A stretch of DNA of 64,000 nucleotides from Methylotenera sp. (GTDB taxonomy: Bacteria; Pseudomonadota; Gammaproteobacteria; Burkholderiales; Methylophilaceae), in the NCBI GenBank assembly GCA_020622105.1, contig JAHRYP010000002.1, forward strand, positions 14,176 to 78,175. Reading direction: 5' to 3'. The notes below the pieces were generated by a model. That model ran no database searches. It saw nothing but the letters and a program-made list of their open reading frames with translations, and had not been told where the DNA came from. Positions 5,569-19,592 of this stretch are shown piece after piece (position 1 is the stretch's first letter; each line of letters begins with the position of its first letter). The position numbers were made by a program, and so were the translations under genes.

Positions 5569-8213
5569 ATGACTGAATATTCTAGAATTGAAGCAGTCTG
5601 GTGGCGTAATACTAGAACTAGAGGCGTAATTTTTATAATCTCAAACCAGAGTACGCTGATCCAAACCCCGGCTACACAATATAAAAACTGTAATGGTGAA
5701 ATCGGCGCGAAATGAAATATTTCGCGAAGTATCGGAAAACTTAGTATTAGCAAAAGAAACACAAATGCACCCAAGATCACCCACCATAAAGCAGGATTAT
5801 ATTGACTGGCGGTTTTAAGTACGCTGTGACGCCATGAACGATTAACCAGAATCAAGCCTAGATTACCAATGACCAAAGTTGAGAAGGTCAATGTCCGAGC
5901 CACTTCATCACTTGCGTCATGCAGCAGCGCATAACTTAATACCGATAATGAAGACAACAGCACAAATACGCCCTGCCATAGACTGATTAAGAAAATACGG
6001 CGACCAAACAAAGCTTCACTGGAGGGTCGCGGTGGACGCTGCATGATATTTGCTTCTGCTGGCTCAGCTTCAAAGGCAATTGAACACGCGGGATTAATGA
6101 TCATTTCCAGAAATACGATATGCACAGGCGCGAACACTGGCGACCAGCCGAACAATAAAGGTATCAGTGCCAAGCCAATAATAGGAAAATGCACCGCAAA
6201 AATGTAAGCCATGCCTTTGCGCAAATTGTCGAAAATAGAACGGCCCAAACGCACCGCATGCACAATCGATGCAAAATCGTCATCAAGCAGAACCAGACCA
6301 GCAGCCTCACGCGCCACGTCAGTACCGCGCCCGCCCATCGCAATTCCAATGTGTGCAGCTTTTAATGCAGGCGCATCATTCACACCATCGCCAGTCATTG
6401 CCACAATCTCGCCATTCGCTTTCAGTGCATTGACTAGACGCAGCTTTTGCTCAGGAACCATGCGCGCAAATATATTGCTGTGATGAATACGCTCGCGTAA
6501 GGTTACCTCATCCATCTGGGTTAACTCTGCACCGGTAATTATTCCGCCATCACCGGCAGGAAGCCCGATTTGAGATGCGATAGCGATAGCAGTTGTCGGA
6601 TAATCACCGGTAATCATCACCACGCGAATCCCGGCAGCATGACATTGTTTGATTGCCGGCAATACCGTTGGCCGTACCGGATCAGCCAAACCGATGAGCC
6701 CAAGAAACTCAAATTCAAAATCATGCTGAATGTCAGGCCAAGTGTTGCTGCTATGATTAGCTTTAGCCACCCCTAGTACGCGCATACCCTGTGCAGCTAT
6801 CTGATCTACCTGCTGAGCCAGTTGCGCCAGCTGTGTTGCATTGAAATGGCACAGATCAGCAATAGCCTCTGGCGCACCCTTTGCAGCGACCACATAGTCG
6901 TTACTATCCACCGCTTTCCACACCCGAGATAGTGCCAGCAACTCAGGTGATAACGCATACTCGTGAGCCATTTGCCAACTCCCATGCAAGTGCTCAGTAT
7001 CGGCTAAATAACGCTTACCTAAAGTATGAATGGCTTTTTCCATTGGGTCAGACGGTGCAATGTCACTGGCTAAAATAGAAAACTCTGCTAATTCATGAAA
7101 CATCTCCGGCATCAGCAGTTCTGATTGAGTGCAGTCAAAGACAGCATTATTGACTACTAGCTGTCGTACCTCCATACGATTAAAGGTCAGCGTGCCAGTT
7201 TTATCTACACACATGACAGTGGCCGAACCCAGCATCTCGACCATATTAACGCGCCTTGTCAGCACGCGGTGCTTGGAAATACGCCAGGCCCCCATCGCCA
7301 TAAAAACAGTCATCACAACCGGGTACTCTTCAGGTAATATCGACATCGCCAAAGTGATGCCAGATAACAATCCATGCAACCAATCGCCGCGTGTCAAACC
7401 ATATACAAGCAGTAGTAACAGGCTTAGAAAAGCTCCAAGAATAGCGAGATTGCGGACCAAGTGTTTAATTTCATTCTGCAAAGGGGTTGTTACACTGTCT
7501 AATTCCTGCAGGGATTTACCTATTTTGCCTATTTCACTGTTGAGGCCAGTTGCCAACACCAATGCTTGTCCTCGTCCCTGTACAACTAAAGTGCCGGCAT
7601 AGATAAACGGCAAACCATCACCGCCCGGTGGCGAAACTTCAGAAATGGGCTGCTCAATCCGGTTGGTCTGCGCAATTTTGGTAACAGACACCGACTCTCC
7701 GGTTAGTAATGATTCATCTACAGCAAGATTATGACTGGAAGTTAATACGGCATCCGCCGGCACGCGATCGCCTTCGGATAATATGAGCATGTCACCGCGT
7801 ACTACTTCACGTCCAGCAATACGTTGCTCAACGCCATCACGCACTACTAAAGCGCGCGGACTGGTTAAGTCGCGCAGAGCATCCAATACACGCTCGGTTT
7901 TGTTTTCCTGGTAAATAGTGATTGTCATCACCACACACACAAAACCTAGCAACATCAGCGCATCAGTGACATCTCCTAGCAGTAAATAAATACCCCCGGC
8001 TGCCACCAATAACAGAAACATAGGCTCTTGTACGACCTCCCATGAGATGTCCCGCAAATTTCTCTTGCCAGACACAGGTAGCTCGTTCGCACCATCTTGC
8101 TTCAACCTGACTTTTGCTACTGCACTTGATAAGCCAACATGCTGAAAAATACCAAGCCCTTGCTGCGGCTTACGCAAGTTTTTAACAAAACGCTGTGTGT
8201 TTTTAATCTGCAT
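5565..8213 (-). CDS. Cation-translocating P-type ATPase (type II-like)
   Basis: TGES, PEEYP, DKTGT, KGAPE, MITGD and TGDGVNDAPAL motifs; multiple TM segments. Overlaps the patatin 3' end by 4 bp (convergent). Confidence 0.95.
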   Translation of the reverse strand: MQIKNTQRFVKNLRKPQQGLGIFQHVGLSSAVAKVRLKQDGANELPVSGKRNLRDISWEVVQEPMFLLLVAAGGIYLLLGDVTDALMLLGFVCVVMTITIYQENKTERVLDALRDLTSPRALVVRDGVEQRIAGREVVRGDMLILSEGDRVPADAVLTSSHNLAVDESLLTGESVSVTKIAQTNRIEQPISEVSPPGGDGLPFIYAGTLVVQGRGQALVLATGLNSEIGKIGKSLQELDSVTTPLQNEIKHLVRNLAILGAFLSLLLLLVYGLTRGDWLHGLLSGITLAMSILPEEYPVVMTVFMAMGAWRISKHRVLTRRVNMVEMLGSATVMCVDKTGTLTFNRMEVRQLVVNNAVFDCTQSELLMPEMFHELAEFSILASDIAPSDPMEKAIHTLGKRYLADTEHLHGSWQMAHEYALSPELLALSRVWKAVDSNDYVVAAKGAPEAIADLCHFNATQLAQLAQQVDQIAAQGMRVLGVAKANHSSNTWPDIQHDFEFEFLGLIGLADPVRPTVLPAIKQCHAAGIRVVMITGDYPTTAIAIASQIGLPAGDGGIITGAELTQMDEVTLRERIHHSNIFARMVPEQKLRLVNALKANGEIVAMTGDGVNDAPALKAAHIGIAMGGRGTDVAREAAGLVLLDDDFASIVHAVRLGRSIFDNLRKGMAYIFAVHFPIIGLALIPLLFGWSPVFAPVHIVFLEMIINPACSIAFEAEPAEANIMQRPPRPSSEALFGRRIFLISLWQGVFVLLSSLSVLSYALLHDASDEVARTLTFSTLVIGNLGLILVNRSWRHSVLKTASQYNPALWWVILGAFVFLLLILSFPILREIFHFAPISPLQFLYCVAGVWISVLWFEIIKITPLVLVLRHQTASILEYSVI

Positions 8214-8573
8214 AATTTGCGCAGTTGCTAAGCTCGAATGTTCCTGTATTAAGAAGAAGTATCTTTAAATGATAATATCATCTGACCTAGCTGCTTCAAA
8301 ATTGACTGTCGTTTTGGGCGATTGCTGAAATCTGAACGGCAGATTTATGTCCGTAACTAAACTAGATCTATGTGAATTATGGCTGGCATCATTCGCATAG
8401 ATGACGCAAAAAATGATATGACAATATCGTGGACTGTATTTGTACTGTAAATTAGATGGGGATAGCTGCCAATGGCATTCAATAGAGTAATGTCATTGAC
8501 ATAAGATGCTATATGACTGCGGTTTAAACACTAACACCTTCCTGACTCCGATTTAATCGAGAAAACTCTAAAT

Positions 8574-11144
8574 TCACCCCTCTTTTACACGCTGTGCAAT
8601 ATGCGCCAAGGCTTCATCTACCTGATCAATCAAAATCAGACATAAATCACCTTCACCTAAACGTGACAGCCCAGTATCAATAGCCAAAAACTCGCCTCGA
8701 ATTTCATCAATTTTCTTGGATCGTTTAGCATTTAGCAGGCCCTGTTGCAAAAGCTGCAACACTTCACCATCTGCACGACCACGCTGACATTTATCCTGAT
8801 ACAGGATTACTTCATCAAACGCGTCACCAACAATCTCTGACTGGCGCATGATATCAACATCACGGCGATCTCCTGCGCCGCTGATCACGACTAAACGTCT
8901 TTTTGCAGGAATATTTTCGACCGCTGCTACAAGGGCAAGTATGGCATCCGGATTATGCCCATAATCCGCAATTACATTTGCACCGCGATATTCGAAAAAG
9001 TTAAATCTACCGGGTGCAGTCGCAGCATCATTTACAAAAGTGCTGACGCCTGCTTGTATCGTTTTCCAATCCACATTTAAAGCCCAGGCAGCGGCAATTG
9101 CCGCCATGGCATTCTCAACCTGAAAACCGATGATACCGTTTCTGGTAATTGGAATTGACGCCAGGTCAAAACGCTGTTCTTCCTGATTTTGTGCGGCCAC
9201 GATCTGGTTGTTTTCTACATAAACAATACGATGCCCCTGTGCGCGATGCGTTGCCATGACAGGATTTTCGCGATCATAAGCAAAGAATGTAACGCCTCCA
9301 GGACACGAAGCAGCCATCGCCACAGTCATAGGATCCGCCGCATTAAGAACAGCCATACCGTCCGGTGCAACATTCTGCACTACTACGCGTTTAACAACAG
9401 CCAGATCTTCAACCGTCGTAATAAAGCTCAAACCAAGGTGATCGCCAACGCCAATATTGGTAACGACTGCGACATTGCAGCGATCAAATGCCAAGCCCTC
9501 TCGCAGCACACCGCCGCGCGCGGTTTCAAAGACTGCTGCATCAACATCAGGGTGCATCAATACATTACGTGCACTTTTCGGCCCACTACAATCACCGGTA
9601 TCAATGCGTTTACCTTGAATATAAACACCGTCAGAATTGGTCATACCGACCCTTAAACCCTGACAACCAAGAATATGTGCAGTCAAACGCACAGTAGTCG
9701 TTTTACCATTGGTACCGGCAACAGTGACTAAAGGTATACGCCCGTTATCTCCTGGTGAAAATATGGAGGAAACAATCGCCTCTCCTACAGGCCGACCTTT
9801 ACCGAAAGAGGGCTGCAGATGCATGCGTAACCCTGGCGCTGCATTCGCTTCAACAATACCGCCACCTTGCACTTCGAGCGGCTGCAACACACTGTCGCAC
9901 ACCACATCAATACCGCAGATATCCAATCCTACCATCTGTGCCGCGGTGACTGCACTTGCTGCCAGATCTGGATGAACATCATCGGTTACATCCGTTGCCG
10001 TACCTCCGGTACTTAAATTGGCGTTATTGCGTAATATGACACGCGCACCTTTACCGGGAACAGAGTCCAATGCCAAATGCTGTTCAGCCAAACACGAAAC
10101 AGCAATATCATCGATACGAATTTTGGTCAGCGACGTTGCATGCCCCGAACCGCGACGTGGATCACTGTTAACCTGATTAACTAAAGTCTGAACTGTGCTG
10201 ATGCCATCACCGATCACCAGTGGTGGCTCACGTCTGGCTGCTGCAACCAGCTGATTACCGACTACCAGTAAGCGAAAATCACTGCCGGGAATGTATTTCT
10301 CAACCAGTACCTCTTCACTGATAGCGCTAGCAGCGGCGTAGGCAGCATTGAGTTGTTCGCGGGTGCTGATATTTACGGTAACGCCCTTACCCTGATTACC
10401 GTCTTTAGGTTTAACCACGACGGGTGAGGCTATTTCAGCCATGGCACGCCATGCGTCTTCAATGTCTGAGACTTCACGCCCGACAGGTACTGGCACACCG
10501 GCTGCATCCAGCAGTTTTTTGGTCAGCTCTTTATCCTGCGCAATTGCTTCTGCAATCGCACTGCTGCGATCCGTTTCTGCAGCCTGAATTCGACGCTGAC
10601 GACTACCCCAGCCAAACTGAACCAGGCTACCCTGTGTCAAGCGGCGGTATGGGATGCCTCTTGCCACAGCTGCATCTACAATTGCACCGGTACTCGGGCC
10701 AAGCCGCACGTCCTCATCTAAATCCTTAAGCTCCGTTATTGCTCCAGCAAGGTCAAAAGGCTTACTCTCCACAGCTGCCTGACATAGCTGCTCTGCCAGC
10801 TCAAGCGCACGGCGGCCTACAGCCTCTTCGCTATATTCAATCACTACCTGGAATACATTGGATTGTTGTGTAGTAGCGGTACGGCTGAATGTCACTGGGC
10901 AGCCAGACTTTGCCTGAAGAGCAAGCGAGGCAACTTCGAGTACATGTGCCATAGACACTGGCCCGCTATGACCCATCAGCTGCAGGCAACCTATTTCAGG
11001 AAAATGCTCTCGCAATCTCGCTTCAAAACCATCAATGCTGTCAATTTTGCACTCTTCATCGCTACAGGACACCACAGCTTCAATAGCAGTGTGACGACTC
11101 CATAAATTAGGACCACGTAGCGCACGTATGCGTGATACTTCCAT
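8574..11144 (-). CDS. cphA: Cyanophycin synthetase (full-length, ATP-grasp + Mur-ligase domains)
   Basis: RALRGPN N-terminus; ATP-grasp motifs KPKDGNQGKG, NANLSTGG, EANAAPGLRMH; Mur P-loop GTNGKTT; C-terminal DYGHNP. Confidence 0.95.
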   Translation of the reverse strand: MEVSRIRALRGPNLWSRHTAIEAVVSCSDEECKIDSIDGFEARLREHFPEIGCLQLMGHSGPVSMAHVLEVASLALQAKSGCPVTFSRTATTQQSNVFQVVIEYSEEAVGRRALELAEQLCQAAVESKPFDLAGAITELKDLDEDVRLGPSTGAIVDAAVARGIPYRRLTQGSLVQFGWGSRQRRIQAAETDRSSAIAEAIAQDKELTKKLLDAAGVPVPVGREVSDIEDAWRAMAEIASPVVVKPKDGNQGKGVTVNISTREQLNAAYAAASAISEEVLVEKYIPGSDFRLLVVGNQLVAAARREPPLVIGDGISTVQTLVNQVNSDPRRGSGHATSLTKIRIDDIAVSCLAEQHLALDSVPGKGARVILRNNANLSTGGTATDVTDDVHPDLAASAVTAAQMVGLDICGIDVVCDSVLQPLEVQGGGIVEANAAPGLRMHLQPSFGKGRPVGEAIVSSIFSPGDNGRIPLVTVAGTNGKTTTVRLTAHILGCQGLRVGMTNSDGVYIQGKRIDTGDCSGPKSARNVLMHPDVDAAVFETARGGVLREGLAFDRCNVAVVTNIGVGDHLGLSFITTVEDLAVVKRVVVQNVAPDGMAVLNAADPMTVAMAASCPGGVTFFAYDRENPVMATHRAQGHRIVYVENNQIVAAQNQEEQRFDLASIPITRNGIIGFQVENAMAAIAAAWALNVDWKTIQAGVSTFVNDAATAPGRFNFFEYRGANVIADYGHNPDAILALVAAVENIPAKRRLVVISGAGDRRDVDIMRQSEIVGDAFDEVILYQDKCQRGRADGEVLQLLQQGLLNAKRSKKIDEIRGEFLAIDTGLSRLGEGDLCLILIDQVDEALAHIAQRVKEG

Positions 11145-11215
11145 TAAACAGTTTTCCTTGTATTAATTTTTATCGAATATTTAAAATCGCTCACAATGCT
11201 TCCGACATCGGCATT

Positions 11216-13363
11216 TCAAACATCCGGCTGTTCCAAACTATAGGTTTTAACTCCGGCGCTTATTAAATCCGGAGAAATTCCAAGTGCCCATGCTGCAGCC
11301 ACTGCTGGCAGCAATGGCTGCATACTCTGTGCTGAAATGGGTTTTGCCGCTGGATTCGTTAACAGAATCTTGCACAGCGATGATGCCAGAATCAGACCGC
11401 CGCCTTTTTGCAGCACGGCCCGCCCACCTTGCTTCAGATGCTTGCGAATCACAGGTGATTCAGAATTTGTAGCGAAAAATATTACTTCTCCATCACATAG
11501 CTCCGCCATCTGTGCGACTAACGGATCTTCTGCATTCAGCACGGCAACGCCATCGCCAAGCACTACATCGACCTGAGTGCGCAGCACGTTATAAACCTGT
11601 TCTGGCGTTTCAGTATAAAAGGCACCAAAATGCTTTTCAGATTGAATATTAGTCACTACTCCCACCTGACAACGATCGTAACCGAGACCTTCTGCCAGTA
11701 TCGTAGAAACACTGTTCTCAATCACAGCAGCTTCTACTTTACGGTTCATTAATAGCTTCTGCGCAGCTGTCCAGGTAGCGCAATTACCCTTCTCAATCTG
11801 TCGCTCCCCAGAAAACAAGCCATCACTGCAAGCCAATCCAACGTGACTGCCACTTAAATGAATAAATCTGGCCAGAATCTTTGCAACTCTTGTTTTACCG
11901 CTACTGCCAGTAATGCCAACAACAGGAATACGGCCAGTCTCATCATCTGTAAACAGATGATCAACAATCGCTTTACCTACCGGACGCGGCTGGCCTTCTG
12001 CCGGTTTTAAGTGCATAAGAAGACCAGGTCCGGCATTTACTTCTACAATGGCACCACCTTGTTCACCCAGTGGCTTAGAAATATCCTCAGCCACCAGATC
12101 GATGCCCGCGATATCCAGACCAACAACACGTGCAGCCAGTGAAACGGCTGCAGCGACTTCAGGGTGAACAATATCGGTGACATCAAACGCTACGTTACCG
12201 TTACGCTGAACAATAATTGAAACATCTTTTGGCAAAACTGAATCGGCGGTATAACCCTGCCGTTCAATTTCAAATTTTACTGCCGGGTTTTTATCTACTA
12301 GCAGCACGTCCAGCGGGAACTCTTCCTCCTCACCGCGCCTTGGGTCTGAATTGACCTGCTGATCAATCAACTCACGCACAGTAGCAACGCCGTCACCAAG
12401 CACAGAAACCGTTTCTCCACGCGCAGCAGCTGCAAGCTTACCGCCAACCACCAGTAAACGATGTTCGTTACCACGCACAAAACGCTCAACCAGCACCTCG
12501 CTGCCTTCAGCATCTGCCAGATGATAAGCGGCTTCTACTTCTGCGCGCGTCATGAGTTCAGTAGAAACACCGCGTGCATGGTTAGCGTCCGTGGGCTTCA
12601 CAACAACAGGAACACCAATATCTTCAGCCGCATCCCAGGCATCCTCCGGGCTTTCTACAATACGGCCTTCTGGCACTGGAACACCGCAGCTGGTTAACAA
12701 TTGCTTGGTTAAGTCTTTATTGCGCGAGATACCTTCAGCAATCGCGCTGGTACGGTCAGTTTCCGCTGTCCATACCCGATGCTGGCGGGCGCCATAGCCA
12801 AGCTGTACCAGATTGCCATCAGTCAGGCGAATTGAGGGAATGTTTCGTGCAGTAGCGGCATCAACAATGCAAGCCGTGCTTGGCCCCAGACAATGTGAAT
12901 CTATCAATTCGCGCAAATGATGAATAGCGGCTTTCACATCAAAGGGTTTATCTTCAATTGCTGCCATTACCAGATCGCGGCCTGCGTGTAGCGCTGCAAT
13001 ACTTACTTTCTCATTTCTGGAACGCACTACAACCTTGTAAACACCGCGTACAGAGGTGCTGCGCGCCTTACCGAAACCGCCCTGCATACCTGCTAGCGTT
13101 TGCAACTCAAGGGTAACGTGCTCAAGAATGTGGCCCGGCCAAGTACCTTCACGCAGGCGCAGCAGAAATCCGCCAGGCTCACCGATGCCGCAGCGATGCT
13201 CTGCCAGTGAAGGCAGCCATGCTGTCAGTCGTTCATAGAATCCGGGAATAAGGTTTGAAGGTGAATCCTCCAAAGGGCCAATGTCGAGCCATACCTCTAG
13301 CACAGGGCGATATGTCCAGATATTCGGCCCGCGTAGCGCTAAAATCTTTAAGAACTTCATCAA
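11216..13363 (-). CDS. cphA': Cyanophycin synthetase-like paralogue (CphA'), C-terminally shortened
   Basis: LRGPNIW and GGF..RL.EGTW.GHILEH N-domain, ATP-grasp-like core, altered Mur P-loop GSSGKT, no DYGHN domain. The start may be the ATG at 13360. Confidence 0.9.
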   Translation of the reverse strand: MMKFLKILALRGPNIWTYRPVLEVWLDIGPLEDSPSNLIPGFYERLTAWLPSLAEHRCGIGEPGGFLLRLREGTWPGHILEHVTLELQTLAGMQGGFGKARSTSVRGVYKVVVRSRNEKVSIAALHAGRDLVMAAIEDKPFDVKAAIHHLRELIDSHCLGPSTACIVDAATARNIPSIRLTDGNLVQLGYGARQHRVWTAETDRTSAIAEGISRNKDLTKQLLTSCGVPVPEGRIVESPEDAWDAAEDIGVPVVVKPTDANHARGVSTELMTRAEVEAAYHLADAEGSEVLVERFVRGNEHRLLVVGGKLAAAARGETVSVLGDGVATVRELIDQQVNSDPRRGEEEEFPLDVLLVDKNPAVKFEIERQGYTADSVLPKDVSIIVQRNGNVAFDVTDIVHPEVAAAVSLAARVVGLDIAGIDLVAEDISKPLGEQGGAIVEVNAGPGLLMHLKPAEGQPRPVGKAIVDHLFTDDETGRIPVVGITGSSGKTRVAKILARFIHLSGSHVGLACSDGLFSGERQIEKGNCATWTAAQKLLMNRKVEAAVIENSVSTILAEGLGYDRCQVGVVTNIQSEKHFGAFYTETPEQVYNVLRTQVDVVLGDGVAVLNAEDPLVAQMAELCDGEVIFFATNSESPVIRKHLKQGGRAVLQKGGGLILASSLCKILLTNPAAKPISAQSMQPLLPAVAAAWALGISPDLISAGVKTYSLEQPDV

Positions 13364-13486
13364 TCTTTCCAGATGAAAAAAATCACAATAAAGTGTGCCG
13401 CCTTACTACAAGAAACTTGCATCTAACTTACAACTAGCTTTTTAACTATTTTGTAAGGCAATCTGAATGTAGTAAACTCGGTACCT

Positions 13487-15808
13487 GTGAACAGCAAAAT
13501 ATTACACCTAACTCCATCCAGTAGACTGCTACCGAACTTCTGGCAATCAATAGTTCAATCACATCTTGAAAATGCAGAAGAACTAAAGGCCTGGCTAGAG
13601 ATCAACCTTGATGAACAGCTACATTTTACAGAACATTTATTGCTTATTACCAACCGGCGATTAGTATATTTTTGTCCAGATAAAACGCATGCAGATATAC
13701 CGAATGTTTCGGTGTATGAATACGCTTATCAGCCAGATTTAAAGTTACTTCAGCATGATCATGCCGGGGTCTACAGGCTGGAGTTGTTTGAACATAATTT
13801 GCGCATAGCCAGCTGGTGCTACACGCTGACCAGCGACACTTCATCCGCAAGATTTATCAAGCAGTTCGAGCAACAGTGCACCAGTTTTATTACTGGCAAA
13901 CCTGTACCTGCCGAAGCAACCGAGCCTTGCCCAAAATGCAGATACCCGCTCACAGCAGAGCAGGATGAATGCCCGCAATGCAGTAGCGAAATTGATACGC
14001 CACCCTCTACATGGACACTGTTCAGACTGTGGCGATTTGCCAAACCCTATCAATGGCAACTGCTGGCGGGCTTTTTATTAATGCTGGCATCCACCGCCGC
14101 CACGCTGGTACCGCCCTATTTAACCATTCCGCTAATGGATAAAGTGCTAATCCCTTATCAAAATGGCGTACCTATAGATACCGACCTGGTTGCGCTTCTG
14201 CTAGGTGGGCTATTAGGTTCAGCACTTTTGGCATGGAGCCTTGGCTGGTCAAAAACCTACATACTGGCACTGGTCAGTGAGCGCATAGGGGCTGATTTGC
14301 GCACCATCACTTACGACCATTTGCTCAAACTTTCGCTTGAATATTTTGGCGGCAAACGTACCGGCGACCTCATGGCACGCATCGGTTCTGAATCCGACCG
14401 GATTTGTGTATTCCTGTCATTGCACCTTCTGGACTTTGCAACCGATGTACTGATGATCATTATGACGGCTGCAATCCTGGTCTCTATCAACCCGGAACTT
14501 GCCTTGGTCACTTTACTGCCGCTACCTTTTATTGCGTGGATGATCCATATCGTGCGCGACAAGCTGCGCACCGGCTTTGAAAAGATAGACCGCGTATGGT
14601 CAGAAGTCAGCAACGTATTGGCCGATACCATTCCGGGGATACGCGTAGTGAAGGCTTTTGCACAGGAAGCCCGAGAATCATCACGTTTTCGCGAGGCTAA
14701 CCAGCACAATCTGGCAGTGAATGACCGTATCAATAAAATATGGTCATTATTCTCTCCCAGCGTGACTTTACTCACAGAGATTGGCCTGCTGCTAGTGTGG
14801 GCGTTCGGTATCTGGCAGATATCTAAAGATGAAATCAGCGTCGGTATACTGACAGCGTTTCTGGCTTATATCAGCCGCTTCTACACACGGCTGGACTCCA
14901 TGAGTCGCATCGTTTCAGTCACGCAAAAAGCTGCATCCGGTGCAAAACGTATTTTTGATATTCTTGACCATGTATCCAGCGTGCCGGAACCAAGCAATCC
15001 GGTTCATCTGGATAAAGTTTCGGGAAAAATTGAAATTCGCTCGGCTGGTTTCCGTTACGGCAATCGTACCGTGATCAAGGATTTAAACCTGACTATTGAG
15101 CCGGGTGAAATGATTGGCCTGGTTGGTCACAGTGGTTCAGGCAAGAGTACTCTGGTTAACCTGATGTGTCGCTTTTATGATGTCAGTACAGGCTCTATCA
15201 GCCTCGATGGCGTCAATATCCGCTCTTTACCGATTTCCGAATATAGACGCAACATTGGTCTGGTATTACAGGAGCCGTTCCTGTTTTTTGGCAGTATTGC
15301 GGAAAACATCGCTTATGGCAAACCGGATGCCACTCGCGCTGAAATCATTGCCGCAGCGCGTGCTGCACATGCGCATGAGTTTATTCTGCGCCTGCCGCAC
15401 GGTTATGACTCGCTGGTAGGTGAACGCGGTCACGGCCTTTCCGGCGGTGAACGCCAGCGCATCTCAATTGCGCGCGCCTTGCTCATAGACCCACGCATTT
15501 TGATTTTAGATGAAGCGACAGCTTCAGTTGACACAGAAACTGAAAAGGAAATCCAGAAAGCCTTGGATAATCTGGTGCATGGGCGTACCACCATCGCTAT
15601 CGCGCACCGATTGTCTACACTGCACAAAGCCAACCGATTAGTCGTGATGGATCAAGGCCAGATTGTTGAAATTGGCAACCATGACGAACTGATGGCGAGC
15701 GAAGGCGCTTACTACCGACTGTATCAGGCACAGGCACGCAATGTAGATACTGATCTGGATGACGTGATCAGCAATGAAACAATCGCCAATAAAGAAGCGA
15801 GCGCATAA
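13487..15808 (+). CDS. ABC exporter (fused permease/ATPase) with about 175-aa N-terminal extension; cyanophycin-locus-associated type
   Basis: Six-TM exporter domain, Walker A GHSGSGKST, signature LSGGERQR, Walker B ILILDEAT, IAHRLST. The N-extension ends in CPKC-x10-CPQC. Confidence 0.92.
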   Translation: MNSKILHLTPSSRLLPNFWQSIVQSHLENAEELKAWLEINLDEQLHFTEHLLLITNRRLVYFCPDKTHADIPNVSVYEYAYQPDLKLLQHDHAGVYRLELFEHNLRIASWCYTLTSDTSSARFIKQFEQQCTSFITGKPVPAEATEPCPKCRYPLTAEQDECPQCSSEIDTPPSTWTLFRLWRFAKPYQWQLLAGFLLMLASTAATLVPPYLTIPLMDKVLIPYQNGVPIDTDLVALLLGGLLGSALLAWSLGWSKTYILALVSERIGADLRTITYDHLLKLSLEYFGGKRTGDLMARIGSESDRICVFLSLHLLDFATDVLMIIMTAAILVSINPELALVTLLPLPFIAWMIHIVRDKLRTGFEKIDRVWSEVSNVLADTIPGIRVVKAFAQEARESSRFREANQHNLAVNDRINKIWSLFSPSVTLLTEIGLLLVWAFGIWQISKDEISVGILTAFLAYISRFYTRLDSMSRIVSVTQKAASGAKRIFDILDHVSSVPEPSNPVHLDKVSGKIEIRSAGFRYGNRTVIKDLNLTIEPGEMIGLVGHSGSGKSTLVNLMCRFYDVSTGSISLDGVNIRSLPISEYRRNIGLVLQEPFLFFGSIAENIAYGKPDATRAEIIAAARAAHAHEFILRLPHGYDSLVGERGHGLSGGERQRISIARALLIDPRILILDEATASVDTETEKEIQKALDNLVHGRTTIAIAHRLSTLHKANRLVVMDQGQIVEIGNHDELMASEGAYYRLYQAQARNVDTDLDDVISNETIANKEASA

Positions 15809-15810
15809 CG

Positions 15811-16293
15811 ATGGCAACGATCAACCCCAATAAAGATTTCACGCTGGCACGTAACCCAACAGGCCAACTGCAATTTACTGATAGCGATGGCATTGTGTTT
15901 GATAATGTTTATCTCGTGCGCGCTTTTCCTATCTCAGCACCTGACGAAGGGCTTTCAATTATCAGCAAAGAAGGTCACGAGCTTGCATGGATTTCCAACT
16001 TAGTAGATATGCCGATTCAATTGAAAGAACTTATCGAAGCCGAACTTGCGCAGCGTGAGTTCATGCCGGAAATTCTGCGTATTAATCAGGTATCAAGCTT
16101 TGCTACACCTAGCATGTGGGATGTATGGACAAATAAAGGTAGCACACAACTGATCCTCAAAGCAGAAGACCAGATATGGCGGCTTAAAAACAACAGGATT
16201 CTCATCACAGACAAAAACGGCGTTAATTTCATGATCAATAACATAGAGCAGCTGGATAAGCACTCCAGAAAACTGCTGGATAGATTTTTATAA
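15811..16293 (+). CDS. DUF1854-type protein
   Basis: Starts 2 nt after the ABC gene. VRAFPISAP..GLS, E.ELA.REFMPEI, S.ATPS.W.V.T.KG and LD..SRKLLDRFL match my recollection of DUF1854 proteins found next to this ABC type. Confidence 0.8.
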   Translation: MATINPNKDFTLARNPTGQLQFTDSDGIVFDNVYLVRAFPISAPDEGLSIISKEGHELAWISNLVDMPIQLKELIEAELAQREFMPEILRINQVSSFATPSMWDVWTNKGSTQLILKAEDQIWRLKNNRILITDKNGVNFMINNIEQLDKHSRKLLDRFL

Positions 16294-16482
16294 CACTAGA
16301 ATTTTTGAGGTTGGACAGAATAATTAACCTTAAAATCTCTGTGTAACAGCCATTCTTTGCACTTCTTTTTCCTAGCTAAGTTACTGCTATCTATACGAAA
16401 AAATGATAGCAAGATTTCAAATATTGGCATATCGTTATAGTTATGAATATTGGGTTACTGTTTATACCTATAACTACTAAAA

Positions 16483-18534
16483 ATGGCCTCAAATTCTTTC
16501 AAGATCAGTTCGATTAAAAGCAGGGTAACAGCCCTGACGCTTGCCATTTTCATTATTGGCGTGTGGTTACTTTCGTATGATATCAGCCAAAAACTGCAAA
16601 AGGATATCGCTAAACAAATCAGTGAGCAGCAACTTTCCACTACCGCTTTATTAGCAAACCAGATCAACAACGACCTTGTGGACAGACAAACCACACTTGA
16701 AGATCTTGCTAAAAGAATAGGTCAGATTGGGCTAGACGATCAGGCACAATTACAATCATTTCTGGATGACCGCTTTGTTATTAAACGGGATTTCAATGTA
16801 GGTGCTTCTATTATCAACTTTGATGGCAACGTCATTGCCTCTGTTCCTAGTAAGTTTCAACGCATTGGCATTAATTATAGAGATAGAGCCTTTATCGCTA
16901 CTGCACTCGATAAAGGCAAACCGACCATCAGCGAAATTTTTATTGGAAAGGTACTGCAAAATTTTGTTTTCGGCCTAGCGGTGCCAATCCGTAACTCACA
17001 GGGTAAAGTCATTGGCGCTCTTGCTGGCGGAATCGACCTGACAAAGCCAAATTTTCTGGATAAAATTGCCGACAACCGTTTCGGAAAAACCGGTTATTTT
17101 CTGTTAGAAGATCAAAAAACCAGAATCATCATTACCAGTACTGACAAACGCCGTGTTTTGCAGCAACAGTTGCCACCTGGCACCAATCGGCTAGTTGACC
17201 GCCATTTGCAGGGTTATGAGGAAAGCGGAATCACAACCAATACTTTCGGGGTTGAAGTATTAGCTTCTGCCAAGCGTATTCCTATTGCAAACTGGGTAAT
17301 GGTCGTAGCTATCCCAACGGCAGAAGCTTTTGCACCTATCAAGGAAATGCAATCACGCATCATAGCAATTGCAAGTCTGTTGACATTAATATTAGGCGCT
17401 ATCATTTGGTGGCTGTTATGGCGTGAACTATCACCAATATTTTCCACCATCAAAAAACTGGGGATTCTAGCGAGGCTGGAAACCCATAATGTGCTATTAC
17501 CAGAAACCAAACATGGTGAAATAGGCGACCTTATCAAAGCTTTTAACCTTTTGCTGACAGCCTTGCAGCAACGTGAACAGGCTTTGGAGGAAAGCGAATT
17601 TCGCTGGAAATTTGCAATTGAAGGTACCGGAGATGGGCTCTGGGATTGGGATATTCCTAACAATACCGTCTATTTCTCAAAAACCTGGAAAACAATGCTG
17701 GGCTATTCTGAGGGAGACATCAGCAACAACCTGAGTGAGTGGGAAAGACTTGTGCATCCTGATGACCTGCATGACACCATGATTGCTGTACAAGAACATC
17801 TGGATGGAAAAACGCCAGCCTACATCAATGAGCACCGCTTACTCTGTAAAAATGGTAGCTACAAATGGATACTTGACCGAGGTCTGGTTGTAAGCCGAGA
17901 CGAACAAGGCAAACCACTACGTGCCATCGGCACACACACTGATATCACCGAACGCAAACAAATGGAAGAATTTATACGTCAGCAGGCACTGTATGACCCT
18001 CTGACCAAACTACCTAACCGGCGTCTGTTAGTTGATCGCCTCGGGCTGGCAATGTCGACAAGCAAACGTACCGGTAGTCACGGCGCACTGCTATTTCTCG
18101 ATCTGGACAACTTTAAACCGCTTAATGACACCCATGGCCATGAAGCTGGTGATTTGCTGCTGATCGAGGTTGCCAACCGAATAAGGCGTTGCTTGCGAGA
18201 AACAGACACCGTTGCCCGCTTGGGTGGTGATGAATTTGTGATTGTGCTTGCACAGCTAGATATAGATAAGAACATATCAAAACAACAGGCTGAAATGTTA
18301 GCCGAGAAAATTCGTACCGAATTGGCTAAAACCTATGCTCTTGAACTGAAAGGCGAAAATGGTAAAGTTTTTATAATTGAACATCACTGTACCGCAAGCA
18401 TAGGCGTCACACTGTTTATTGATGAAAGATCTTTTATTAACGATATTCTAAAAAACGCCGATGATGCCATGTACCAAGCTAAAAACGCTGGCCGAAATCG
18501 TGTCTGCTTTTATGACTCAAACAAGAAAACTTAA
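16483..18534 (+). CDS. Diguanylate cyclase (Cache-HAMP-PAS-GGDEF)
   Basis: Two TM helices flank a periplasmic Cache-like region; PAS (DGLWDW...HPDD); RETD I-site and LGGDEF. Confidence 0.92.
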   Translation: MASNSFKISSIKSRVTALTLAIFIIGVWLLSYDISQKLQKDIAKQISEQQLSTTALLANQINNDLVDRQTTLEDLAKRIGQIGLDDQAQLQSFLDDRFVIKRDFNVGASIINFDGNVIASVPSKFQRIGINYRDRAFIATALDKGKPTISEIFIGKVLQNFVFGLAVPIRNSQGKVIGALAGGIDLTKPNFLDKIADNRFGKTGYFLLEDQKTRIIITSTDKRRVLQQQLPPGTNRLVDRHLQGYEESGITTNTFGVEVLASAKRIPIANWVMVVAIPTAEAFAPIKEMQSRIIAIASLLTLILGAIIWWLLWRELSPIFSTIKKLGILARLETHNVLLPETKHGEIGDLIKAFNLLLTALQQREQALEESEFRWKFAIEGTGDGLWDWDIPNNTVYFSKTWKTMLGYSEGDISNNLSEWERLVHPDDLHDTMIAVQEHLDGKTPAYINEHRLLCKNGSYKWILDRGLVVSRDEQGKPLRAIGTHTDITERKQMEEFIRQQALYDPLTKLPNRRLLVDRLGLAMSTSKRTGSHGALLFLDLDNFKPLNDTHGHEAGDLLLIEVANRIRRCLRETDTVARLGGDEFVIVLAQLDIDKNISKQQAEMLAEKIRTELAKTYALELKGENGKVFIIEHHCTASIGVTLFIDERSFINDILKNADDAMYQAKNAGRNRVCFYDSNKKT

Positions 18535-18555
18535 CGCATTATTACTAGCTAAGAA

Positions 18556-19377
18556 TTAAACGGAAAAACGACGTTGCAATTCGTCCAAGTTCAGTTCATT
18601 CAAAATTGCATCTAATCTATCTTGCGCATTTTTACGCGGCTGCCCAGTATATTTAGCAATAATCAATTCGTTTTTCATGGAGTGCTCCCACCCTACCAGC
18701 TCGGTCACAGTAAGGCTGTAGCCAGCGCTTTCCAGCTGCAAGCAACGCAATACATTGGTGATCTGGCTGCCGAATTCACGCGTATGGATAGGATGACGCC
18801 AGATTTCACTCAGCGGTGTTTTAGCAAAACTTTCGTTTTTATGCTTTCTCAACACTTCGGCTACTTCAGCTTGGCAGCATGGCACCAGCACCATATATTT
18901 GGCATGTTTTTTCAATCCAAACTGAATGGCATCATCGGTTGCGGTATTGCATGCGTGAAGTGCTGTCACAATATCCACACGCTCTGGAATAGCTGGTGAG
19001 GAGATGGACTCCTCTACAGTCAGATGTTCAAAGTGCATACGCTCAAACCCAAGCTGGGCAGCCAGCGCCTTCGAACGCTCCACCAACTCTGCACGTGTTT
19101 CGATACCTATCACTAGACCTGCGTCTAATTGCTTTAACAGCAGGTCATACAGAATAAATCCGAGGTATGACTTCCCTGCCCCATGGTCAACCAATACCGG
19201 ATTAGTATTGCTAGCCAAAACATCATTAAACAAGGGCTCAATAAAATTAACCAGATGGTAGACCTGCTTCAGCTTACGGCGGCTATCCTGATTAAGCTTA
19301 CCGTCACGCGTTAAAATATGCAGCGCTTTGAGCAGTTCTATGGATTGATTAGGTTTTATTTCTGGGATAAGTGTCAT
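18556..19377 (-). CDS. Class I SAM-dependent methyltransferase
   Basis: VDHGAGKSYLG SAM motif; ALHACNTATD and VPCCQ motifs. Confidence 0.85.
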   Translation of the reverse strand: MTLIPEIKPNQSIELLKALHILTRDGKLNQDSRRKLKQVYHLVNFIEPLFNDVLASNTNPVLVDHGAGKSYLGFILYDLLLKQLDAGLVIGIETRAELVERSKALAAQLGFERMHFEHLTVEESISSPAIPERVDIVTALHACNTATDDAIQFGLKKHAKYMVLVPCCQAEVAEVLRKHKNESFAKTPLSEIWRHPIHTREFGSQITNVLRCLQLESAGYSLTVTELVGWEHSMKNELIIAKYTGQPRKNAQDRLDAILNELNLDELQRRFSV

Positions 19378-19440
19378 ATGCGCATTTTAAATCAAAAACA
19401 ATTTGGCCGCTGATTCTCACTGATTAACGCAGATAAAAAT

Positions 19441-19467
19441 TTGAATCGTTGCGCTAAATGCTAAAAT
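19441..19467 (+). promoter_or_regulatory. Candidate sigma70 promoter for ylqF
   Basis: TTGAAT (19441-46) and extended -10 TGcTAAAAT (19459-67). The spacer is a short 15 nt, so the call is tentative. Confidence 0.4.
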
Positions 19468-19488
19468 ACGCCTTTAGTAGCAACCTGA

Positions 19489-19592
19489 ATTTCGTTTCAT
19501 CATCAAGAGATGACGAGGCGACAAGCCGAAGGCAGTGCGTATAGCACGACTAGGCGCAGGCAACAAAGTCAGAATTGATGAGGAAATGAAAT
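19489..19592 (+). repeat. About 100-bp element bounded by 18-bp imperfect inverted repeats in the ylqF leader
   Basis: atttcgtttcatcatcaa (19489-19506) pairs with ttgatgaggaaatgaaat (19575-19592) at 16/18; internal hairpin gtgc-gtata-gcac. Confidence 0.6.

Follow-up and report, generated by a model that had tools for sequence, protein, structure and literature searches.

The closest described relative of the locus considered here is a four-gene module that comprises cphA, cphA', an ATP-binding cassette (ABC) transporter gene and a DUF1854 gene. Price et al. describe cofitness of all four genes, with motility phenotypes and pleiotropic stress phenotypes in the mutants, and these phenotypes come from fitness assays of single-species mutant libraries. 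They propose polymer efflux as the role of the ABC transporter, an idea that has been in the literature since 2016, and mention fusions of DUF1854 to the ABC protein in some cases. Sharon et al. could recognise a cyanophycinase in 2.8% of 903 cphA1-positive betaproteobacterial genomes, a result that they called unanticipated, and a study of activated sludge described a cluster with two cphA copies and an ABC transporter, and with no cphB. Full-text literature searches for a biochemical follow-up of the module found none. Here we analyse one such ABC gene, which lies in a 64,000-nucleotide stretch of DNA from Methylotenera sp. (assembly GCA_020622105.1, contig JAHRYP010000002.1, positions 14,176 to 78,175). 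This whole stretch is referred to as the window, and all positions below are counted from its first nucleotide.

The window holds the same four gene families as the module of Price et al., in an arrangement that is the same in related genomes, and both its ABC and its DUF1854 protein reach equivalog-level scores. It differs in its origin, which is Methylophilaceae (Methylotenera-like). The association with cph genes and the export hypothesis are already known, and NCBI annotation has a name for the family. A preliminary description of the window had stated that the gene has no established function, which is fair in biochemical terms, but NCBIfam names both the ABC and the DUF1854 family and the export idea has been published. 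What is new here is the predicted fold of the N-terminal module of the ABC protein, the specificity of that module to the family, and a quantified survey of the gene neighbourhood.

The ABC gene is part of a conserved four-gene module

Pattern scanning, with each GTDB species represented by one genome, gave at least 554 loci encoding the N-terminal domain of the ABC protein. The neighbourhood survey was made on the best 80 of these, i.e. those most similar to the query, by tblastn with the four window proteins. Those of the 80 loci that carry a class label are labelled Betaproteobacteria, with the exception of one labelled Gammaproteobacteria, and some are labelled only as Pseudomonadota or Proteobacteria. 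The families represented are Methylophilaceae, Gallionellaceae, Sulfuricellaceae, Oxalobacteraceae, Comamonadaceae, Rhodocyclaceae and Nitrosomonadaceae, and the most similar related loci are from Methylophilaceae.

A DUF1854 gene stands directly downstream of the ABC gene in all 68 loci where 600 bp or more could be assessed. Flanking sequence was sufficient on both sides in 54 loci. In 43 of these, cphA'-cphA lies divergently upstream of the ABC gene, and eight show the co-directional order ABC-DUF1854-cphA'-cphA, such that cph genes adjoin the ABC gene in 51 of the 54 fully assessable loci. The other three, all from Rhodocyclaceae, have no cph gene within 8-10 kb, and their neighbours are unrelated housekeeping genes. 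We conclude that the ABC gene is part of a conserved four-gene betaproteobacterial module of cphA, cphA', ABC and DUF1854. A linkage to cph genes had been put forward in the preliminary description, and the survey bears it out; a family standing mostly apart from cph genes is not what we see.

Around the module, the surveyed loci contain no other conserved neighbour, and among those absent are a membrane fusion protein (MFP), an outer-membrane factor, a peptidase and a regulator. In the window, too, there is no solute-binding protein near the ABC gene, as had been observed previously. Clusters of antisense open reading frames (ORFs) that appeared in high-GC loci from naive ORF clustering were discarded. 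The module is also found on the 1.8-Mb chromid p56D2 of Ralstonia wenshanensis (768736-777106; locus L082), where it is annotated as cphA-cphA-ABC-DUF1854.

The ABC protein has the architecture of a type IV half-transporter

The GTG start of the ABC gene (Table 1) is preceded by an in-frame TAA at 13454, with no other possible start between the two, and it is unchanged across eight Methylophilaceae and related loci. Judged by profile, the protein is a typical member of a curated and already named betaproteobacterial family. Its match to the NCBIfam model NF052233.1, "cyanophycin metabolism-associated ABC transporter", is at equivalog level, with a score of 1406.8 bits (cutoff 880). The alignment joins residues 5-765 of the protein to positions 5-759 of the 766-position profile, which indicates that the N-terminal extension belongs to the family definition. 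Full-length orthologues share 70-83% identity with the ABC protein.

Pfam places ABC_membrane at amino acids (aa) 193-465 and ABC_tran at aa 531-679. By hydropathy, the first transmembrane (TM) segment lies at about aa 192-210, which leaves roughly 175-190 residues ahead of it, and about 170 of these are cytoplasmic residues that precede both the elbow helix and TM1. This agrees with the preliminary description, which had reported a cytoplasmic extension of about 175 aa ending in CPKC-x10-CPQC and an exporter-type fusion of transmembrane domain (TMD) and nucleotide-binding domain (NBD). Translation, Pfam and hydropathy support the first of these statements, and Pfam, the motifs and the closest structures support the second. 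In the translation, the NBD motifs are intact: Walker A is GHSGSGKST, the signature is LSGGERQR, Walker B with the catalytic Glu is ILILDEATAS, and the H-loop is AHRLST. A fused six-TM ABC_membrane region and an ABC_tran domain with intact motifs are the marks of the type IV (ABCB-like) fold, and the ABC protein is thus a type IV half-transporter with all catalytic motifs intact, presumably homodimeric.

The nearest solved structures are type IV exporters, namely plant and animal ABCB proteins, TM287/288, MsbA and Sav1866, the last three with E values of 1e-90 to 1e-110 against the ABC protein. None of the closest solved structures covers aa 1-170. The NCBIfam profiles for MsbA, HlyB, TAP, NdvA, HepA and bacteriocin exporters all score below cutoff. 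Neither membership of the MsbA lipid A flippases (TIGR02203, 460 bits against 602; NF008381, 370 against 867) nor membership of the type I secretion/PCAT group (TIGR01846, 413 bits against 725; TIGR01193, 290 against 524) is indicated. The profiles for NdvA/ChvA and HepA give strong but sub-cutoff scores of 389 and 384 bits.

Conservation was compared by region in 65 full-length orthologues. The majority identity is 0.86 for the TMD and 0.87 for the NBD, and falls to 0.63 for the PH-like domain and 0.60 for the zinc-ribbon region. It is unusual for ABCB exporters that the TMD is constrained like the NBD, and this equality suggests a single defined cargo or partner for the ABC protein. Many polar or charged residues in the TMD are invariant among these orthologues.

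A predicted PH-like and zinc-ribbon-like module precedes the membrane domain

The region ahead of the TMD was studied using an alignment of homologues of aa 1-184, all of which are N-termini of the same ABC family, and mostly fragments. An AlphaFold2 (AF2) model built from this alignment has a mean predicted local distance difference test score (pLDDT) of 86 and a predicted template modelling score (pTM) of 0.75. It shows a short helix, seven strands within aa 33-113, a long helix at aa 114-136, two short knuckle hairpins and then the elbow helix. A seven-stranded beta sandwich capped by a C-terminal helix is the hallmark of the PH-like fold, and the model has it. In a Foldseek search against the PDB, almost all of the matches listed are PH or PH-like domains, including hSac2, the BRAG2 PH domain and the bacterial structures 3hsa and 3dcx, with a probability of about 1.0, a target-normalised TM-score of about 0.6 and an E value of about 2e-3. 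Aa 17-136 are therefore predicted, on the strength of this model, to adopt a bacterial PH-like fold. Searches at the level of sequence are fainter: Pfam gives sub-threshold bPH_3 matches for three of 37 homologues (best E value 0.0015) and none for the ABC protein itself, and a search of the N-domain against PDB sequences returned nothing useful.

The domain resembles the bacterial PH proteins 3hsa and 3dcx (DUF1696) in fold topology and size. It differs from the bacterial PH families in having no Pfam bPH match at threshold, in being fused to a zinc ribbon and an exporter, and in carrying its own motif, HHDHAGVG. This motif is invariant and lies in the hairpin between the predicted strands 85-92 and 95-102.

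Behind the PH-like domain come CPKC (aa 148-151) and CPQC (aa 162-165), separated by ten residues. Each of C148, C151, C162 and C165 is kept in at least 97% of the 65 full-length orthologues, and the four Cys residues are for this reason not a matter of chance. Two conserved CxxC knuckles are what defines a zinc ribbon, and 34 of 37 homologues give sub-threshold DZR or Zn_ribbon matches in Pfam. We thus predict that the C4 knuckle pair directly before the elbow helix is zinc-ribbon-like. In the N-module alignment, D91, H92, G94, V95, W110, T113, G137, C148, P149 and C151 are invariant, and C162, C165 and the elbow helix are at least 90% conserved. The elbow helix itself has a majority identity of 0.94 in the 65 orthologues and is modelled as helical at aa 175-182.

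A HMMER scan of the N-domain against 1.84 billion representative proteins gave 307 matches, nearly all of which are the N-termini of ABC fragments. This implies that the module is essentially private to the ABC family, and on these matches the PH-like/zinc-ribbon module appears essentially confined to NF052233. Two apparent exceptions were rejected. A protein combining AAA_16 with the N-domain (P0234; L084, 8001-9761) is an artefact from a frameshift-ridden contig, immediately before an ABC gene, and a fusion of the N-domain to a PMT_2 membrane glycosyltransferase (P0293; L083, 814-2499) occurs on one 2.5-kb contig at 2.6x coverage and is unconfirmed. No earlier description of an N-terminal PH-like plus zinc-ribbon module was found in the literature searched.

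DUF1854 is the most constant partner of the ABC gene

The DUF1854 gene, which the preliminary description had overlooked, is the most constant partner of the ABC gene and is translationally coupled to it. The protein matches NF052234.1, "cyanophycin metabolism-associated DUF1854 family protein", with 208.5 bits against a cutoff of 150, and its closest named relative, from Methylotenera sp. G11, is 73% identical. It is predicted to be cytoplasmic, with neither a signal peptide nor a TM segment. The AF2 model (pLDDT 81, pTM 0.52) consists of two beta-rich halves, each closed by a helix. Comparison of this fold with the PDB gave only tandem small-barrel matches at low TM-scores (at most 0.26) and no credible match, and a sequence search against PDB sequences gave nothing useful. 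We also considered that DUF1854 and the N-domain could be paralogous modules, and rejected this because profile-profile comparison shows no relation (probability 0.4%).

The last twelve residues of the protein are almost invariant. In 39 homologues, D149, S152 and K154-L160 are invariant, and the protein ends in KLLDRFL. Given this pattern of conservation, the C-terminal KLLDRFL helix is a possible docking helix.

Table 1 Positions of the four module genes, the divergent spacer and the regions of the ABC protein within the window.
Feature	Position (nt)	Strand	Description
cphA	8574-11144	-	Full length, 856 aa; NF010623, 1245.8 bits; TIGR02068, 982 bits against a cutoff of 850
cphA'	11216-13360 (ATG) or 11216-13363 (TTG)	-	Cyanophycin synthetase paralogue without the Mur-ligase C lobe
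Divergent spacer, cphA'/ABC	13361-13486		126 bp from ATG 13360; 123 bp from TTG
ABC gene	13487-15808	+	773 aa; fused TMD-NBD half-transporter; NCBIfam NF052233.1
PH-like domain (predicted)	13535-13894	+	aa 17-136; one helix, seven strands, long C-terminal helix; AF2 and Foldseek
C4 zinc-ribbon-like knuckle pair (predicted)	13895-13996	+	aa 137-170; CPKC-x10-CPQC at nt 13928-13981
Amphipathic elbow helix TPPSTWTLFRLWRF	13997-14044	+	aa 171-186; nearly invariant
TMD	14045-14986	+	aa 187-500; Pfam ABC_membrane
NBD	14987-15736	+	aa 501-750; Pfam ABC_tran and motifs in the translation
DUF1854 gene	15811-16293	+	160 aa; NF052234.1, Pfam PF08909; starts 3 bp past the ABC stop

The synthetase pair, the divergent spacer and other neighbours

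In CphA, Pfam finds both Mur_ligase_M and Mur_ligase_C. CphA' covers positions 1-718 of the 871 in the NF010623 profile, with no Mur_ligase_C found, and its alignment with the Synechocystis CphA1 structure 7lg5 (879 aa) covers residues 1-723 and goes no further. Three motifs of its M domain are changed, from TGTNGKTT to TGSSGKTR, from ETARGG to ENSVST and from NVAADHLG to NIQSEKHFG. The cut-off C-terminus and the altered motifs together indicate that the M domain of CphA' is probably inactive. CphA' keeps this short form, of about 715-745 aa where CphA has about 856 aa, in about 50 related loci. The state of the M domain is a further hint that the cyanobacterial paradigm does not hold here for the product or for its assembly. 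In Ralstonia wenshanensis, the ABC-proximal cphA is annotated at 886 aa, and the ABC-proximal cphA may be untruncated in Burkholderiaceae.

The ATG at 13360 is the cphA' start picked by the gene caller, one codon after the TTG; the 123-bp divergent spacer given in the preliminary description holds for the TTG start. Scans of the spacer and operon found no sigma-70 consensus match, no terminator and no Rfam match. Directly upstream of the GTG start of the ABC gene, at 13450-13486, Methylophilaceae relatives share a conserved element, TTTGTAAG...TGATTGTAGTACACTCAG, also written TTTGTAAG...TGATTGTAGTA(C/A)ACTC. No Shine-Dalgarno sequence is present at this element ahead of the GTG, and the element may serve as a site for a regulator, or as a promoter or initiation region of an unusual kind. 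Two runs labelled as metatranscriptomes (X25 and X26) were considered as evidence for co-transcription across window positions 8000-19500 and were rejected as probably DNA, because they give contigs of 28-45 kb, with depth differing only about threefold between genes on both strands and with one contig running across the spacer.

The neighbours of the ABC gene in the window are genes for a P-type ATPase, CphA, CphA', DUF1854 and a dCache-PAS-GGDEF protein. The last of these, a diguanylate cyclase gene at 16483-18534 on the plus strand, lies downstream of the DUF1854 gene. It is not a conserved neighbour across loci, although one PAS-GGDEF gene is found near the ABC-DUF1854 pair in locus L019. 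Contigs from two public runs carry an in-frame deletion of 102 bp in it (16897-16998), inside the Pfam dCache_1 match. The exact window sequence occurs in metagenomes from groundwater, freshwater and sediment.

Discussion

We favour a reading in which soluble CphA and the M-domain-truncated CphA' would make a cyanophycin-type polyamide with an Asp backbone, or an oligomer, in the cytoplasm, and a dimer of the ABC protein would move this product across the inner membrane. The exported product would serve an extracytoplasmic role, in the envelope or periplasm, and not storage. The PH-like/zinc-ribbon module and DUF1854 would act in the cytoplasm as a device for docking the cargo or the synthetase, or for gating. 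Taken jointly, that the synthetases build a polyamide or oligomer, that the ABC dimer exports it, and that cargo recognition or synthetase docking falls to the N-module and DUF1854, this reading has in our estimate a probability of about one half. A more specific version, in which the module is a dedicated export route for a cyanophycin-type polyamide, with the N-domain and DUF1854 handing over the chain or the synthetase and the polymer ending as envelope or periplasmic material, is offered more tentatively.

Known exporters provide partial precedents. In the PgsBCA/CapBCA systems, an amide ligase of the Mur-ligase type builds a polymer of amino acids without the ribosome, this polymer ends up outside the cell, and the poly-gamma-glutamate so made is a precedent for an exported polyamide. 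Those systems couple synthesis and export in one membrane complex without an ABC protein, whereas here the exporter stands apart from soluble synthetases. The cyclic beta-glucan exporter NdvA/ChvA, and HepA, are homodimeric ABCB-type proteins that carry an oligomer or polymer made in the cytoplasm to the periplasm or envelope, but their cargo chemistry is different and they have neither a PH-like/zinc-ribbon N-domain nor a DUF1854 partner. Exporters of the PCAT1/HlyB type are, like the ABC protein, ABCB-like half-transporters with a cytoplasmic N-domain, which in their case is C39 or C39-like and recognises a polyamide cargo. Our N-domain is PH-like with a zinc ribbon and not C39, there is no conserved MFP or TolC-like partner, and the cargo would be non-ribosomal. 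The likeness of the N-module to the C39 and CLD domains of PCAT and HlyB would thus be one of role and not of ancestry.

Export of the CphA/CphA' product by the ABC protein is plausible. Since synthetase and transporter mutants behave alike in the published assays, the two seem to be required for a single end product. An extracytoplasmic role in place of storage would also account for the absence of a cyanophycinase from about 97% of cphA-bearing betaproteobacteria.

Several points weigh against this reading. An ABCB protein would find an awkward cargo in canonical cyanophycin, which is large and, at neutral pH, insoluble, and the type IV fold also includes importers (IrtAB, YbtPQ), such that direction is unreadable from sequence. 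With no conserved MFP or outer-membrane partner, the product would reach the periplasm at best. The ABC-DUF1854 pair lies away from cph genes in three of the 54 loci, within a survey drawn from the 80 most query-similar of at least 554 loci. The roles that we give to the N-domain and DUF1854 are purely inferred. According to Price et al., the CphA/CphA' pair of Cupriavidus necator did not make cyanophycin, and in the account of Sharon et al. no process of cyanophycin export is known.

In a rival explanation, the transporter would export low-molecular-weight side products or precursors of the synthetases, such as beta-Asp-Arg dipeptides, short primers, Arg or Lys, as a relief valve that balances the pathway and carries no functional polymer; the preliminary description had raised an alternative of this kind. 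Small amphipathic molecules or short peptides are the typical cargo of ABCB-type exporters, the solved structures closest to the ABC protein belong to exporters of drugs (multidrug type), lipids and peptides, and outer-membrane components are not conserved nearby. The published cofitness fits better with a linear pathway whose end product is needed than with a detoxification valve, under which synthetase mutants would be neutral. The high conservation of the TMD, the dedicated PH-like module and the obligatory DUF1854 are also elaborate for a simple valve, and we regard this explanation as unlikely.

The cytoplasmic parts of the system could be read in another way, akin to the anchoring of the synthetase by the N-domain that the preliminary description had put forward, with the ABC protein and DUF1854 tethering or regulating CphA and CphA' at the membrane through the N-domain and with ATP hydrolysis as a switch. 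PH-like folds are often adaptors that bind proteins or peptides, both the N-domain and DUF1854 are cytoplasmic, and the invariant C-terminal helix KLLDRFL resembles a docking motif. However, a TMD that is conserved like the NBD, including many polar residues, is hard to explain without translocation, and all catalytic motifs of the NBD are intact. A purely scaffolding or regulatory role is therefore, in our view, quite improbable.

Type IV importers with N-terminal cytosolic domains exist (IrtAB), and CphA', which lacks the C-terminal M lobe and has altered M motifs, is superficially like the dipeptide-polymerising CphA2 of cyanobacteria. Even so, uptake of cyanophycin fragments or beta-Asp-Arg for re-polymerisation by a CphA2-like CphA', with the N-domain handling cargo in the manner of the IrtA cytosolic domain, is very improbable, as CphA' matches CphA1 (E 1e-154) much more closely than it matches CphA2 structures (E 1e-56), the surveyed loci have neither a conserved binding protein nor a conserved outer-membrane receptor in the vicinity, and the passage of Price et al. 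on the assays gives no hint of an external cyanophycin supply.

To the export of a CphA/CphA' product, the window itself adds only structural detail on the N-module and a quantified neighbourhood survey, but the implications of that reading would be broad. The usual view of cyanophycin is that of a nitrogen store kept entirely inside the cell, and the roughly 97% of cphA-bearing betaproteobacteria without a cyanophycinase are a puzzle to specialists. An exporter tied to cphA and cphA' would, if the reading is true, be relevant to nitrogen recovery from wastewater and to biopolymer production, where a secreted product is valuable. It would also change the view of the purpose of the polymer in betaproteobacteria, where it would be an envelope or periplasmic material and not a nitrogen store.

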